In this document: positions 1,554 through 5,334 of the stretch, piece after piece
Numbering within the stretch: the first letter of the stretch is position 1
Layout of the letters: each line of letters starts with the position of its first letter
NCBI RefSeq assembly: GCF_003334305.1
Contig: NZ_QOWS01000043.1
Origin: Escherichia coli
GTDB lineage: Bacteria; Pseudomonadota; Gammaproteobacteria; Enterobacterales; Enterobacteriaceae
Reading direction: 5' to 3' (one strand)
DNA length: 10,116 nucleotides
Notes under the pieces: model-generated
What the model was told of the DNA's origin: nothing
What the model saw: the letters and a program-made list of their open reading frames with translations, nothing else
Database searches by the model: none
Translations under genes and position numbers: made by a program

Positions 1554-1576
1554 AAAAAGGGCGAAATGCCCTTTTT
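1554..1576. terminator. Bidirectional intrinsic terminator shared by convergent maoP (+) and comM (-)
   Basis: Stem aaaaagggc (1554-1562) / gcccttttt (1568-1576) with loop gaaat. The GC-rich core gggc/gccc is flanked by an A-run on the 5' side and a T-run on the 3' side, so either strand reads as hairpin plus U-tract. maoP stop is at 1550-1552 and comM stop at 1577-1579, directly abutting. Confidence 0.75.
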
Positions 1577-3097
1577 TTATGTCAGTAGTTTTTGCAGATG
1601 GATGAGCAAACGGTCAATCGCACGATAGCTAACTGCCTCCTGCAAATGCTGACGTGTGATAATGTCAGACTGATCAATATCAGCAATGGTTCGTGCAACT
1701 TTCAATAACCGCTGCCAGGCACGAATCGATAACCCCAGATGGATCAGTGTTCCTTCCAACCACATCGCATCTTCGCTCTCAAGTTTGCAGAATTGGCGTA
1801 TTTCCGGACTATCCAGCCAGGCATTCAGTTTATTCTGCCGCTTAAATTGGCGCTCTCTGGCGGCCATTACGCGTTGTTTAACGGTGGCGCTGCTTTCTCC
1901 CGGCACTACCGTTTTACTCAAAATGCCGGGGGGTGGTAATGGGATCTCCAGTGAGAGATCGAAGCGGTCGAGAAAGGGCCCCGAGAGCCGGTTGAGATAA
2001 CGTAATGTCTGTTCTGGCGTGCAGCGGTTATGGTTTCCCTGATAATGTCCGGTAGGGCTGGGATTCATCGCCGCAACAAGCTGGAAACGGGCTGGATAGG
2101 TTATTTTGGCTCGTGTGCGTGAAAGATGGATCTGCCCGGATTCAATCGGCTCTCGCAAGGCATCCAGTGTACGCCGTTCAAATTCAGGTAGCTCATCAAG
2201 AAAAAGCACGCCGTTATGCGCCAACGAAATTTCACCTGGCCCTGGAATTGCACCACCGCCCACCATCGCAGTTAACGACGCACTGTGATGCGGTGAGCGG
2301 AACGGGCGCTGCCGCCATTGTTTTTGTACTGATTCAGCATTTACCAGACTTAATATCGCAGCGCTCTCCAGTGCCTCTTCATTGCTTAAATCTGGCAACA
2401 GGCCATTAATACGGCTGGCGAGCATTGTTTTACCTGTTCCCGGCGGCCCAATCAGTAAAAGGTTGTGCCCGCCAGCGGCGGTAATTTCCAGTCCTCGCTT
2501 TCCTTGCTCCTGACCGACAACATCACTGAGATCATGTTGTAGCGCCCGGGATACTGCATCAGTTGGTTTCGGGCGTTCGAGAGCGTGCTTACCTTCCAGA
2601 AACGCACAGACAGCCTGCAGATGATCGGCTATCAGGCATCCTTCACCGTTAATTAGCCCCACTTCATCTTCGTTATCTTTCGCGACGATAATTTTTCTGC
2701 CCGACTTAATAGCTTCAGTTGCACTGGAGATTGCGCCGGGAACGCCACGCAGAGCGCCTGTAAGCGCCAGTTCTCCGACTAATTCATATTCATCTAACTT
2801 ATTGGCTGTAAGCTGTTCTGAGGCCGCCAGCAACGCAATGGCGATAGGTAAATCATATCGTCCCCCTTCTTTTGGCAGATCGGCTGGAGCCAGGTTGATG
2901 GTGATTTTTTTCGCCGGATATTCATATCCGCTATTGATAATGGCGCTGCGCACGCGATCGCGAGCTTCTTTTACAGTTGTTTCTGGTAAGCCCACCATCG
3001 TTAAGCCGGGTAGACCTTTACTGATATGTACCTCAACAGTGATTGGGGGCGCATTTACTCCCAGGGCTGCGCGGGTATGAACAATTGACAGTGACAT
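1577..3097 (-). CDS. comM: ComM / YifB, Mg-chelatase-like AAA+ ATPase (competence protein ComM homolog), 506 aa from the downstream ATG
   Basis: Long minus-strand ORF with Walker A (LLLIGPPGTGKTM) and Walker B (VLFLDELPEF) motifs and an N-terminal Lon-protease-like region. The six-frame track starts at the ATG at 3127 (516 aa), but the in-frame ATG at 3095-3097 is preceded on the coding strand by AAGGAGGG with about a 4-nt spacer, a near-consensus Shine-Dalgarno. It gives the 506-aa product beginning MSLSIVHTRA, which matches my recollection of YifB. Confidence 0.85.
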   Translation of the reverse strand: MSLSIVHTRAALGVNAPPITVEVHISKGLPGLTMVGLPETTVKEARDRVRSAIINSGYEYPAKKITINLAPADLPKEGGRYDLPIAIALLAASEQLTANKLDEYELVGELALTGALRGVPGAISSATEAIKSGRKIIVAKDNEDEVGLINGEGCLIADHLQAVCAFLEGKHALERPKPTDAVSRALQHDLSDVVGQEQGKRGLEITAAGGHNLLLIGPPGTGKTMLASRINGLLPDLSNEEALESAAILSLVNAESVQKQWRQRPFRSPHHSASLTAMVGGGAIPGPGEISLAHNGVLFLDELPEFERRTLDALREPIESGQIHLSRTRAKITYPARFQLVAAMNPSPTGHYQGNHNRCTPEQTLRYLNRLSGPFLDRFDLSLEIPLPPPGILSKTVVPGESSATVKQRVMAARERQFKRQNKLNAWLDSPEIRQFCKLESEDAMWLEGTLIHLGLSIRAWQRLLKVARTIADIDQSDIITRQHLQEAVSYRAIDRLLIHLQKLLT

Positions 3098-3304
3098 AAG
3101 CCCTCCTTGAGTCACTATTATGTGCATAAGATATCGCTGCTGTAGCCCGCTAATTCGTGAATTTTAGTGGCTGATTCCTGTTTATTTGTGCAAGTGAAGT
3201 TGAGTTGTTCTGGCGGTGGAATGATGCTCGCAAAAATGCAGCGGACAAAGGATGAACTACGAGGAAGGGAACAACATTCATACTGAAATTGAATTTTTTT
3301 CACT

Positions 3305-3380
3305 CACTATTTTCTTTTTAAAAAACAACAATTTCTATTGAAATTATTAAACGCATCATAAAAATCGGCCAAAAAATATC
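3305..3380 (+). promoter_or_regulatory. AT-rich upstream activating region of the ilv operon promoter (UP-element / IHF-binding region expected here)
   Basis: About 80% A+T stretch with several A5-6 tracts (3320-3325, 3360-3364, 3371-3376) immediately upstream of the candidate core promoter. Published work on ilvGMEDA describes an upstream AT-rich activating region with an IHF site and a non-productive upstream promoter. Exact site boundaries cannot be fixed from sequence alone. Confidence 0.4.
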
Positions 3381-3421
3381 TTGTGCTATTCGCAAAATCT
3401 ATGGTAACTCTTTAGGCATTC
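3381..3421 (+). promoter_or_regulatory. Candidate core promoter and transcription start region for ilvLXGMEDA
   Basis: Candidate -35 TTGTGC (3381-3386) and candidate -10 hexamers in 3400-3410 (tatggt / taactc). A start near 3420 would give a leader of about 180 nt ending at the attenuator T-run (3596-3603), consistent with the recalled leader length. The hexamer assignment is uncertain. Confidence 0.35.
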
Positions 3422-3449
3422 CTTCGAACAAGATGCAAGAAAAGACAAA

Positions 3450-3548
3450 ATGACAGCCCTTCTACGAGTGATTAGCCTGGTCGTGATTAGCGTGGTGGTG
3501 ATTATTATCCCACCGTGCGGGGCTGCACTTGGACGAGGAAAGGCTTAG
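3450..3548 (+). CDS. ilvL: ilv operon leader peptide (32 aa): MTALLRVISLVVISVVVIIIPPCGAALGRGKA
   Basis: ATG at 3450 through TAG at 3546-3548. 15 of 32 codons encode Leu (4), Val (6) or Ile (5), the hallmark of the branched-chain amino acid attenuation leader. An intrinsic terminator lies immediately downstream. Confidence 0.9.
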   Translation: MTALLRVISLVVISVVVIIIPPCGAALGRGKA

Positions 3549-3569
3549 AGATCAAGCCTTAACGAACTA

Positions 3570-3603
3570 AGACCCCCGCACCGAAAGGTCCGGGGGTTTT
3601 TTT
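3570..3603 (+). terminator. ilv attenuator (Rho-independent terminator of the leader transcript)
   Basis: GC-rich stem acccccg (3571-3577) / cgggggt (3590-3596) followed by 8 consecutive T (3596-3603), 22 nt after the ilvL stop codon. Confidence 0.85.
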
Positions 3604-3634
3604 TGACCTTAAAAACATAACCGAGGAGCAGACA

Positions 3635-3685
3635 ATGAATAACAGCACAAAATTCTGTTTCTCAAGATTCAGGACGGGGAACTAA
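3635..3685 (+). CDS. ilvX: Small ORF ilvX (16 aa: [16 protein letters not shown]) between the attenuator and ilvG
   Basis: ATG at 3635-3637 preceded by GAGGAG (3624-3629), stop TAA at 3683-3685, two nt before the ilvG ATG. It matches the position and sequence of the described E. coli small protein IlvX as I recall it. Translation cannot be judged from sequence alone. Confidence 0.55.
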
Positions 3686-3687
3686 CT

Positions 3688-5334
3688 ATGAATGGCGCAC
3701 AGTGGGTGGTACATGCGTTGCGGGCACAGGGTGTGAACACCGTTTTCGGTTATCCGGGTGGCGCAATTATGCCGGTTTACGATGCATTGTATGACGGCGG
3801 CGTGGAGCACTTGCTGTGCCGACATGAGCAGGGTGCGGCAATGGCGGCTATCGGTTATGCCCGTGCTACCGGCAAAACTGGCGTATGTATCGCCACGTCT
3901 GGTCCGGGCGCAACCAACCTGATAACCGGGCTTGCGGACGCACTGTTAGATTCTATCCCTGTTGTTGCCATCACCGGTCAAGTGTCCGCACCGTTTATCG
4001 GCACGGACGCATTTCAGGAAGTGGATGTCCTGGGATTGTCGTTAGCCTGTACCAAGCACAGCTTTCTGGTGCAGTCGCTGGAAGAGTTGCCGCGCATTAT
4101 GGCTGAAGCATTCGACGTTGCCAGCTCAGGTCGTCCTGGTCCGGTTCTGGTCGATATCCCAAAAGATATCCAGCTAGCCAGCGGTGACCTGGAACCGTGG
4201 TTCACCACCGTTGAAAACGAAGTGACTTTCCCACATGCCGAAGTTGAGCAAGCGCGCCAGATGCTGGCAAAAGCGCAAAAACCGATGCTGTACGTTGGTG
4301 GTGGCGTGGGTATGGCGCAGGCAGTTCCTGCTTTACGAGAATTTCTCGCTACCACAAAAATGCCTGCCACCTGCACGCTGAAAGGGCTGGGCGCAGTTGA
4401 AGCAGATTATCCGTACTATCTGGGCATGCTGGGAATGCATGGCACCAAAGCGGCGAACTTCGCGGTGCAGGAGTGCGACTTGCTGATCGCCGTGGGTGCA
4501 CGTTTTGATGACCGGGTGACCGGCAAACTGAACACCTTCGCACCACACGCCAGTGTTATCCATATGGATATCGACCCGGCAGAAATGAACAAGCTGCGTC
4601 AGGCACATGTGGCATTACAAGGTGATTTAAATGCTCTGTTACCAGCATTACAGCAGCCGTTAAATATCAATGACTGGCAGCTACACTGCGCGCAGCTGCG
4701 TGATGAACATGCCTGGCGTTACGACCATCCCGGTGACGCTATCTACGCGCCATTGTTGTTAAAACAACTGTCGGATCGTAAACCTGCGGATTGCGTCGTG
4801 ACCACAGATGTGGGGCAGCACCAGATGTGGGCCGCGCAGCACATCGCACACACTCGCCCGGAAAATTTCATTACCTCCAGCGGCTTAGGCACCATGGGTT
4901 TCGGTTTACCAGCGGCGGTTGGCGCACAAGTCGCACGACCGAACGATACTGTCGTCTGTATCTCCGGTGACGGCTCTTTCATGATGAATGTGCAAGAGCT
5001 GGGCACCGTAAAACGCAAGCAGTTACCGTTGAAAATCGTCTTACTCGATAACCAACGGTTAGGGATGGTTCGACAATGGCAGCAACTGTTTTTTCAGGAA
5101 CGATACAGCGAAACCACCCTTACTGATAACCCCGATTTCCTCATGTTAGCCAGCGCCTTCGGCATCCCTGGCCAACACATCACCCGTAAAGACCAGGTTG
5201 AAGCGGCACTCGACACCATGCTGAACAGTGATGGGCCATACCTGCTTCATGTCTCAATCGACGAACTTGAGAACGTCTGGCCGCTGGTGCCGCCTGGCGC
5301 CAGTAATTCAGAAATGTTGGAGAAATTATCATGA
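3688..5334 (+). CDS. ilvG: Acetolactate synthase II (AHAS II) large catalytic subunit, intact 548 aa
   Basis: Uninterrupted 548-aa ORF starting [25 protein letters not shown] with a thiamine-diphosphate binding motif ([14 protein letters not shown]...LDN). GGGGA Shine-Dalgarno-like sequence 8 nt upstream. Followed by ilvM with a 4-nt overlap. Confidence 0.95.

Follow-up and report, generated by a model that had tools for sequence, protein, structure and literature searches.

What does a ComM homolog do in Escherichia coli, a species in which natural transformation has never been observed (PMC3330819), so that the one function known for the family is without a demonstrated setting? The question is raised by yifB (comM), a gene of the window analysed here, a 10,116-nt stretch of E. 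coli DNA (contig NZ_QOWS01000043.1). The original prediction, made from the sequence alone, described the protein as a homolog of ComM proteins, which act in the recombination of incoming DNA, in agreement with published work (PMC6158740, PMC11612176, PMC12012524). It also called the role in E. coli poorly defined, and this holds as far as the literature was searched, as our full-text search turned up no study that addressed the function of E. coli yifB directly. Our analyses lead us to propose, with a probability of roughly 0.85, that yifB is a ComM ortholog that would encode a working branch-migration helicase, most likely switched by Sxy and cAMP-CRP, and that it belongs to a sub-lineage characterized by a cysteine-free loop.

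The gene is well known and already annotated, and the mechanism and structure of the ComM family are also known. The whole window matches E. coli chromosomes in which yifB is annotated at this place at 100% identity, and one such RefSeq record carries at 1577..3097 the label "yifB: YifB family Mg chelatase-like AAA ATPase". The gene and its immediate borders comprise:

1577..3097, minus strand: yifB (comM) coding sequence, 506 aa plus stop (RefSeq annotation; NCBIfam NF007365)
3102..3108, minus strand: Shine-Dalgarno sequence AAGGAGG, 4 nt 5' of ATG 3097
1554..1576, no strand assigned: hairpin AAAAAGGGC-GAAAT-GCCCTTTTT between the convergent maoP and yifB genes

The original prediction gave the correct coordinates, in agreement with RefSeq, and the strand, left unstated there, is minus. 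A mechanically called open reading frame is longer (1577..3127, minus strand, 516 aa). We prefer ATG 3097 as the start codon because of the conserved AAGGAGG 4 nt upstream of it, kept as aAGGAGG across 48 orthologous upstream regions, and because the Legionella and Pasteurellaceae homologs start with MSLA or MSLS at this position. The placement next to the ilv operon was also right: yifB is divergent from ilvLXGMEDA, with ilvL (3450-3548, plus strand) lying across an AT-rich spacer of 352 bp, and the gene order hdfR-maoP-yifB-ilvL is common to all 80 of the 80 relatives sampled. The hairpin between maoP and yifB, with folding energies of -11.5 and -12.0 kcal/mol on the two strands (z-scores -3.5 and -3.6), is likely a bidirectional intrinsic terminator.

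Comparison with curated family models assigns the protein to the YifB family over its entire length, with 1143.5 bits for NF007365 (YifB; cut-off 530, positions 1-506 of 506) and 833.1 bits for TIGR00368 (cut-off 362.4). The Pfam domain order, Lon-like, AAA+ and Mg-chelatase-C, is that expected of the ComM/YifB family:

2672..3037, minus strand: Lon-like domain, Pfam ChlI PF13541, residues 21-142 (E=2.5e-44)
1940..2533, minus strand: AAA+ ATPase domain of the MCM/Mg-chelatase clade, PF01078, residues 189-386 (E=2.3e-89)
1622..1900, minus strand: Mg-chelatase-C (lid) domain, PF13335, residues 400-492 (E=1.1e-29)

The best solved relative is ComM of Legionella pneumophila (E=1.9e-141, residues 1-493; PDB 8rxd, 8rxt, 8rxs; PMC11612176), which has the same three-domain order and 47% full-length identity to YifB. 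The AF2 model of YifB (pLDDT 93.5) matches the cryo-EM chains of Legionella ComM with TM 0.88-0.93 at 47% identity (Foldseek), and its Lon domain matches the ComM Lon-domain hexamer 8rxs with TMt 0.96 (Foldseek), while the next fold matches, BchI and MCM, reach a TM of only ~0.4. MCM helicases have the ATPase clade in common with YifB and are a different family: PF00493 matches only residues 287-382 (E=1.3e-8), and MCM structures give TMq 0.35-0.43 at 14-20% identity (Foldseek). RadA/Sms, the functional analogue of ComM in transformation of Firmicutes, is likewise a hexameric motor for branch migration whose Lon-like ring has the same topology, but its ATPase is of the RecA type rather than AAA+, its domains come in the reverse order and it carries a zinc finger at the N-terminus; in E. 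coli, radA is a separate gene, located elsewhere and used in DNA repair. A reading of YifB as a defence protein was rejected, since PADLOC models gave weak P-loop matches only.

The catalytic and DNA-contacting residues were mapped from the YifB translation and from the alignment with Legionella ComM:

2426..2449, minus strand: Walker A motif GPPGTGKT, residues 217-224 (K223, T224)
2192..2209, minus strand: Walker B motif VLFLDE, residues 297-302 (D301, E302)
1721..1723, minus strand: arginine finger R459, corresponding to Legionella ComM R463 by residue mapping

In a family set of 132 sequences, comprising 130 cluster representatives together with those of E. coli and Legionella, K223 is invariant (132/132), as are D301 and E302, and R459 is found in 130 of the 132. 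Across 81 Enterobacterales orthologs K223, T224, D301, E302, the sensor 3 residue R315, the PS1-beta (pore) hairpin arginine R327 and R459 are all invariant (81/81). These residues are counterparts of those that contact AMPPNP and DNA in Legionella ComM; the two proteins have in common the Walker A lysine, the Walker B acidic pair, the sensor-3, PS1-beta hairpin and finger arginines, and also the basic residues facing the Lon pore (K43, R46 and K64 in YifB, aligned with K43, K46 and K64). They differ in the adenine-contacting K195 of Legionella ComM, which is V194 in E. coli and mostly isoleucine in Enterobacterales. The Walker A lysine is needed in vivo in ComM of Vibrio cholerae and Acinetobacter baylyi, both members of the YifB family (PMC6158740, PMC12012524). 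In V. cholerae, DprA docks on the C-terminal Mg-chelatase-C domain of ComM (PMC12012524); R497 of that protein corresponds to the invariant R496 of E. coli, an equivalence by numbering alone, and its L455 to L454, again by numbering, a leucine that is not conserved in Enterobacterales.

The curated models, the comparison with L. pneumophila ComM and the fold comparison uphold the ComM homology put forward in the original prediction. The domain search proposed there recovered ChlI, Mg_chelatase and Mg_chelatase_C, including the N-terminal Lon-like domain it had described, and both Walker motifs are intact, as it claimed. Disrupted ATPase motifs, which it named as the mark of a decaying gene, were not found, given that YifB has a counterpart for each of the catalytic residues identified in the solved ComM. 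The yifB product is most likely a working enzyme. On three features of yifB the original prediction was silent, namely a CRP-S site, purifying selection and the loss of zinc-finger cysteines.

An embedded C4 zinc finger has been predicted in the AAA+ domain of ComM (PMC11612176). Of the 131 family sequences in our alignment, made up of Legionella ComM and 130 cluster representatives, 113 have the C4 pattern, and it is absent from E. coli, all Enterobacterales, Pasteurellaceae and Alteromonadales. In its place YifB has the following segment:

2012..2071, minus strand: loop AMNPSPTGHYQGNHNRCTPE, residues 343-362, in place of the embedded C4 zinc finger (family alignment)

Where Legionella ComM reads NPCPCG...CMC, E. 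coli has NPSPTGHYQGNHN-RC in a loop that is 3 residues shorter; the E. coli loop NPSPTGHYQGNHNRC contains a single, non-conserved cysteine, three of the four C4 cysteines of the solved ComM being missing. The segment GHYQGNHNR of the loop is invariant in all 81 Enterobacterales sequences. ComM of Haemophilus, Pasteurella and Avibacterium, the closest group outside Enterobacterales (58-60% identity to YifB), carries the same cysteine-free loop (NPSPTGHYxGxHNR in Pasteurellaceae), evidence that comes from database sequences only, retrieved with an H. influenzae ComM query. In a neighbor-joining tree calculated with the loop masked, E. coli is sister to Pasteurellaceae within a clade of which 16/16 members are cysteine-free. 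A profile search with the cysteine-free group returned Alteromonadales only and no Vibrio; the one named member of the ten closest cysteine-free cluster representatives is Glaciecola. We also asked whether H351, H356 and C359 might bind zinc and decided against it, because many Pasteurellaceae have asparagine in place of H351, and C359 varies even among Enterobacterales. As Haemophilus and Pasteurella ComM also lack the finger, its loss from YifB is a trait of the lineage and not decay, and the finger is typical of the ComM/YifB family without being required for membership. YifB belongs to a gammaproteobacterial sub-lineage, shared with Pasteurellaceae, in which the C4 finger has been replaced by a conserved cysteine-free loop.

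Analysis of the upstream region revealed two candidate regulatory elements:

3217..3232, minus strand: predicted CRP-S (Sxy-dependent CRP) site TGCGA-GCATCA-TTCCA, ending 119 nt 5' of the start codon
3161..3166, minus strand: candidate -10 hexamer TAAAAT, preserved as gTAAAa in 48 upstream regions, its distance to the CRP-S site being constant

The first is an exact match, and the sole match in the window, to the published E. coli motif TGCGA-N6-TTCCA (T4G5C6G7A8-6N-T15T16C17C18A19; PMC6728893). A site with at most one mismatch, 116-120 nt from the ATG, is present in 48 of 76 distinct orthologous yifB upstream regions (mostly from Enterobacteriaceae), and its flanks are unalignable among these regions. 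With TAAAAT as the -10 element the centre of the CRP-S site would lie at about -70. Pasteurellaceae comM genes also have a CRP-S site upstream (PMC10269479, PMC1635313), in the palindromic form TGCGA-N6-TCGCA, whereas the E. coli form is the asymmetric TGCGA-N6-TTCCA; the latter is the pattern suited to E. coli. A search with the palindromic one (at most two mismatches) gave 8 matches against 7.7 expected and was uninformative. Another pair of hexamers, TTGGCC-18-AATAAT (3372-3343), listed for the yifB-ilvL spacer in PMC3946193, was the only match of a simple scan, scored no better than shuffled sequence and was not adopted as the yifB promoter. Cameron and Redfield included comM (b3765) among the genes of the CRP-S regulon predicted for E. 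coli, demonstrated Sxy induction being that of ppdD, yrfD and sbmC (PMC1635313). The membership of yifB in the predicted regulon was already published in 2006-2009. Sinha 2009 is said to report the whole E. coli CRP-S regulon.

How this gene should be read depends on what else could account for it. Older annotations make YifB a Mg chelatase subunit or an ATP-dependent Lon-type protease, in line with the Pfam names ChlI and Mg_chelatase, with several database records that call orthologs "ATP-dependent protease", and with local similarity to BchI (residues 286-347, E=2.9e-9) and LonB (residues 190-242). This reading is effectively refuted: the BchI-ChlI model TIGR02030 gives 24.1 bits against a cut-off of 466.95 over residues 285-347 only, BchI (1g8p) reaches TMq 0.42 compared with 0.88 for ComM (Foldseek), the protease models match the P-loop region only (TIGR02902, LonB, 38.7 bits vs 723.3; TIGR00764, 36.8 vs 516.6), and the Lon-like domain of the solved ComM is a basic, DNA-lined hexamerisation ring and not a protease. 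To our knowledge, E. coli makes neither chlorophyll nor bacteriochlorophyll. It is hardly more credible that yifB is a leftover of a competence system since lost, that it is now decaying and that the missing cysteines mark lost function. The absence of three C4 cysteines from a pattern otherwise so widespread in the family, the lack of known transformability in E. coli and the existence of a few strains with disrupted yifB (e.g. 2015C-3101, interrupted by an IS91 insertion) would fit such a history, but yifB is found in 5426/5426 complete E. coli genomes, with coverage of at least 80% in 5423 and disruption in only about 3, and its orthologs are intact in 80/80 sampled relatives (506-508 aa, mostly from Enterobacteriaceae and Erwiniaceae), so that 81/81 are full-length. 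The dN/dS of yifB is 0.03-0.06, compared with 0.04 for ilvG, i.e. purifying selection on yifB is as strong as on its biosynthetic neighbour. Moreover, the replacement loop is itself invariant, and the loop-masked tree groups E. coli with Pasteurellaceae. The cysteine-free loop also occurs in ComM of Avibacterium, and Avibacterium paragallinarum is a species that is naturally transformable and for which a review of competence genes counts ComM among the DNA-processing proteins (PMC10269479). By its sequence record, then, yifB is not a decaying gene.

A more serious alternative, which we nevertheless consider unlikely, is that YifB is a functional ATPase/helicase that E. coli keeps for a role other than natural transformation. 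It would explain why the gene is universal and selected as strongly as ilvG in a species in which transformation has never been detected, and comM (b3765) has been reported to be UV-induced (PMC1635313). We found no LexA box near the yifB promoter and no excess of such boxes over chance, so a UV response of yifB, if there is one, would lie outside the classical SOS response. One candidate for such a role is action on stalled replication forks or recombination intermediates under depletion of the nucleotide pool, and a starvation-linked role of this kind was suggested by Cameron and Redfield for cytoplasmic members of the CRP-S regulon (PMC1635313). Against it, a role confined to natural transformation has been reported for ComM of V. 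cholerae (PMC11612176), the conserved promoter element of yifB is of the competence-type CRP-S class, removal of yifB left Ori macrodomain behaviour unaltered (PMC5023128), and the literature searched contains no E. coli yifB phenotype. An extended version holds that an active, finger-less ComM is kept for a non-transformation role and that Enterobacterales, Pasteurellaceae and Alteromonadales share a previously unremarked, zinc-independent ComM subtype; we regard this too as speculative. The possible role would here be the rescue of stalled forks or the processing of recombination intermediates in nucleotide starvation signalled by Sxy and cAMP.

The reading of yifB as a ComM ortholog under competence-type control remains the preferred one, and its likely course of action can be sketched from homologs. 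ATP- and DNA-dependent hexamerisation, helicase activity and branch migration have been shown only for ComM of V. cholerae and L. pneumophila. By analogy, YifB monomers would, with ATP present, form a hexameric ring on DNA whose two tiers are made of Lon-like and AAA+ domains, DNA would be threaded through the basic central pore of this ring, and ATP hydrolysis would drive branch migration of three-strand joints made by RecA. In ordinary growth yifB is most likely transcribed at a low level, and cAMP-CRP and Sxy (TfoX) would jointly switch it on, which would make yifB part of the silent competence regulon of E. coli.

These findings sharpen the puzzle from which we started. Members of Pasteurellaceae (A. 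paragallinarum, Haemophilus) are naturally transformable, while E. coli, which is not known to be and has never been shown to transform, keeps an apparently fully functional helicase of the transformation pathway together with a competence-specific promoter site, both conserved to the same degree as a core biosynthetic gene. For the family, the zinc finger drawn in current domain schemes of ComM is missing throughout a lineage to which Haemophilus belongs, some members of this genus being naturally transformable, and the cysteine-free loop bears on how the unresolved density of the finger in the ComM structure is interpreted.

Analysis of the annotation reveals the gene order tRNA-Asp, tRNA-Trp, hdfR (minus strand), maoP (plus), yifB (minus) and ilvL-ilvX-ilvG-ilvM-ilvE-ilvD-ilvA (plus) in the window, which is a piece of the E. 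coli chromosome; strain H15 and a number of other strains match it with 100% identity, and 5397 of 5426 complete genomes cover at least 80% of it. The competence-type gene originally predicted at 1577-3097 beside the ilv operon equals annotated yifB, an already known and annotated feature, with ilvL as its divergent neighbor. Its landmarks are:

1577-3097, minus strand: yifB coding sequence, matching the annotated interval exactly
3102-3108, minus strand: AAGGAGG, the ribosome-binding site of yifB, conserved among orthologs
1554-1576, folding on both strands: hairpin between the convergent maoP and yifB stop codons, its 9-bp stem bordered by an A-run and a T-run

The mechanical ORF is 30 nt longer than the annotation, extending up to an ATG at 3127; the true start is the ATG at 3097, because the AAGGAGG is kept in orthologs and the homologs of Legionella and Pasteurellaceae likewise begin with MSLA/MSLS. 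The hairpin (about -12 kcal/mol, z about -3.5, on both strands), which a consensus terminator scan did not pick up, is probably a bidirectional terminator common to maoP and yifB. As to the surroundings, the tRNA genes at 1-157 (tRNA-Asp being truncated by the window edge) sit distally in an rRNA operon, which is why most draft contigs with yifB stop about 1.5 kb past hdfR. At the other side, strain H15 (locus L001 of the comparison set) has an IS621 (IS110-family) transposase between ilvA and ilvY, at 13233-14213 of that locus, just past the right end of the window. A Pluralibacter MAG (L055) carries about 1.3 kb of additional DNA between yifB and maoP, where the gap is 24 nt in E. coli. The match to Rfam RF02744 'Rev39_5p_UTR' (157 bits, 3379-3668, plus strand), a family named from soft-rot Enterobacteriaceae, extends over the region of the ilvL leader peptide and the attenuator and is here the ilv leader. 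The ilvG gene (3688-5334) is an intact ORF of 548 aa in the source strain; that of E. coli K-12 is known to bear a frameshift.

The 506-aa product is matched end to end by the curated YifB equivalog model (1143.5 bits, with a cut-off of 530), and among solved structures the Legionella pneumophila ComM helicase is closest to it (E=1.9e-141, aligned residues 1-493). A confident AlphaFold2 model calculated from an alignment of 80 diverse family members (mean pLDDT 93.5, pTM 0.90) superposes on the ComM cryo-EM chains with TM 0.88-0.93; TM falls to only about 0.4 for the folds ranking next, those of BchI and MCM subunits. The older names are untenable, as the curated models of BchI/ChlI, LonB and RuvB each score far under their cut-offs; none of the anti-phage defence models matched. 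Residues named at the nucleotide and DNA sites in the ComM structure paper (PMC11612176) were mapped onto YifB, giving, together with the Pfam domains, the following features:

Residues 21-142: ChlI, Lon-like domain (Pfam)
Residues 189-386: Mg_chelatase, AAA+ domain (Pfam)
Residues 400-492: Mg_chelatase_C domain (Pfam)
G217...K223-T224: Walker A
D301-E302: Walker B
R315: sensor 3
R327: pre-sensor-1 hairpin arginine
R459: arginine finger
K43, R46, K64: basic residues of the Lon pore
Residues 343-362 (window 2012-2071, minus strand): cysteine-free loop NPSPTGHYQGNHNR in place of an embedded C4 zinc finger

All mapped sites are present. Leaving aside conservative K/R exchanges in the pore, none of them varies among 81 Enterobacterales sequences, and they are almost invariant in the family set of 132 sequences, which comprises E. 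coli, Legionella and 130 representatives of clusters at 50% identity. The catalytic glutamate of Legionella ComM is numbered E302 (PMC11612176), and our reconstruction of the deposited chain places the acidic pair at D302-E303, which aligns with E. coli D301-E302 under either numbering. The original prediction of a ComM homolog is thus borne out by the curated model, the Pfam domains, the Legionella match and the fold: the Lon-like domain that it placed at the N-terminus is ChlI, the domain search that it proposed recovered all three families, and Walker A and B are intact as it stated. Disruption of the ATPase motifs, named there as a sign of decay, was not seen on alignment, since every mapped ATPase and DNA-site residue is present.

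As judged from the alignment, the missing C4 finger is one real difference of YifB from the solved ComM, the finger sequence NPCPCGQWGNSQANCMC of the Legionella protein corresponding to NPSPTGHYQGNHN-RC in E. coli. The family alignment of 131 sequences (Legionella ComM and 130 cluster representatives) has the C4 pattern in 113 and no more than one cysteine in 17. All 81 Enterobacterales sequences are of the cysteine-free form, with GHYQGNHNR invariant; so are about 115 from Pasteurellaceae (Haemophilus, Avibacterium and the Pasteurella multocida 'competence protein ComM' among them) and sequences from Alteromonadales, e.g. Shewanella and Colwellia. In a neighbor-joining tree calculated with the loop masked, E. 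coli is sister to Pasteurellaceae, and the clade that takes in Shewanella too is entirely cysteine-free (16/16). Avibacterium paragallinarum can be naturally transformed, and Haemophilus has been described as naturally competent (PMC10269479). Because the trait is common to this whole clade, transformable and competent members included, the loss of cysteines is an old trait of this lineage that is compatible with a working ComM, and it does not point to decay. Residual metal binding by the loop is improbable: many Pasteurellaceae have N in place of H351, and position C359 is variable within Enterobacterales. We found no mention of a cysteine-free variant in the ComM literature examined, and the word 'zinc' is absent from PMC6158740 and PMC12012524.

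The distribution of yifB likewise upholds the predicted retention. The gene is present in 5426/5426 complete E. coli genomes, with coverage of at least 80% in 5423, and in an ortholog scan with one genome per species (80 loci, chiefly Enterobacteriaceae and Erwiniaceae) the ORF is full-length (506-508 aa) in all 80, the order hdfR-maoP-yifB-ilvL/ilvG being kept at every locus with sufficient flanking sequence. Against other Escherichia species, dN/dS in pairwise comparison is 0.03-0.06, equal to that of ilvG (0.04) and hdfR; the gene is under strong purifying selection of an ordinary kind. In absolute terms YifB evolves faster than its neighbors (67-86% identity across the sample vs 77-92% for IlvG), with substitutions clustered in the linker between domains and in the C-terminal lid. 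In two of three Escherichia comparisons yifB has roughly double the dS of ilvG (0.46-0.52 vs 0.22-0.26) at similar dN/dS, which agrees with weakly biased codon usage and low expression, or with another recombination history. In other taxa yifB/comM is known as an integration target of mobile elements; it is uninterrupted in the window. In E. coli 2015C-3101 (L082, 4904-6725) an IS91-family transposase insertion splits yifB, annotated as two pseudogene pieces; this genome is one of only about 3 of the 5426 with coverage below 80% and the only disrupted case that we examined.

The spacer between yifB and ilvL (352 bp) is AT-rich (41% GC). Alignment of 76 distinct orthologous upstream regions reveals a single conserved island; the rest of the stretch from the ilvL promoter side to the ribosome-binding site is hardly conserved. 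Two elements were recognized:

3217-3232, minus (yifB) strand: candidate CRP-S site TGCGA-GCATCA-TTCCA, in the conserved island
[quoted passage not shown] 2009. Even with one mismatch allowed, it is the sole match to that form in the window; by our own calculation, chance would give about 0.02 exact 10-base matches per 10 kb, both strands included. In 48/76 regions a site with no more than one mismatch ends 116-120 nt upstream of the start codon, its flanks being unalignable. If TAAAAT is the -10 element, the CRP-S center would lie near -70, a class-I position. Cameron and Redfield included comM (b3765) in their list of E. coli genes orthologous to members of the Haemophilus CRP-S regulon, cited its UV induction, and demonstrated that three other CRP-S promoters of E. 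coli depend on Sxy and CRP (PMC1635313). A LexA box was sought for the yifB promoter and none was found. In the Pantoea-like loci L079-L081 the site at about 118 nt upstream is degenerate or missing and a canonical-looking CRP half-site arrangement, TGTGA-N6-TTCAT, lies instead farther upstream, at about 165 nt from yifB, suggesting that regulation has turned over between Enterobacteriaceae and Erwiniaceae.

The intact residues, fold, selection and promoter site come from the present analysis; activity, oligomeric state, induction and partner binding are inferred. By homology with ComM of V. cholerae, A. baylyi and L. pneumophila, whose literature is consistent with the predicted role in recombination of incoming DNA, YifB monomers with ATP would most likely form a hexamer on DNA, which would thread through the basic Lon-ring and AAA+ pores; the helicase may be recruited by DprA via its C-terminal domain, and ATP hydrolysis would drive branch migration, lengthening the heteroduplex made by RecA/DprA.

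Both the observation and the interpretation of the original prediction were therefore correct, including its view that the role in E. coli is poorly defined: full-text literature searches returned no direct study of E. coli yifB, and the sole phenotype result found is negative, deletion leaving Ori macrodomain constraint unaffected (PMC5023128). Since natural transformation has never been demonstrated for E. coli (PMC3330819), the persistence of a complete, well-conserved ComM with a competence promoter poses the same puzzle as the whole E. coli competence regulon.
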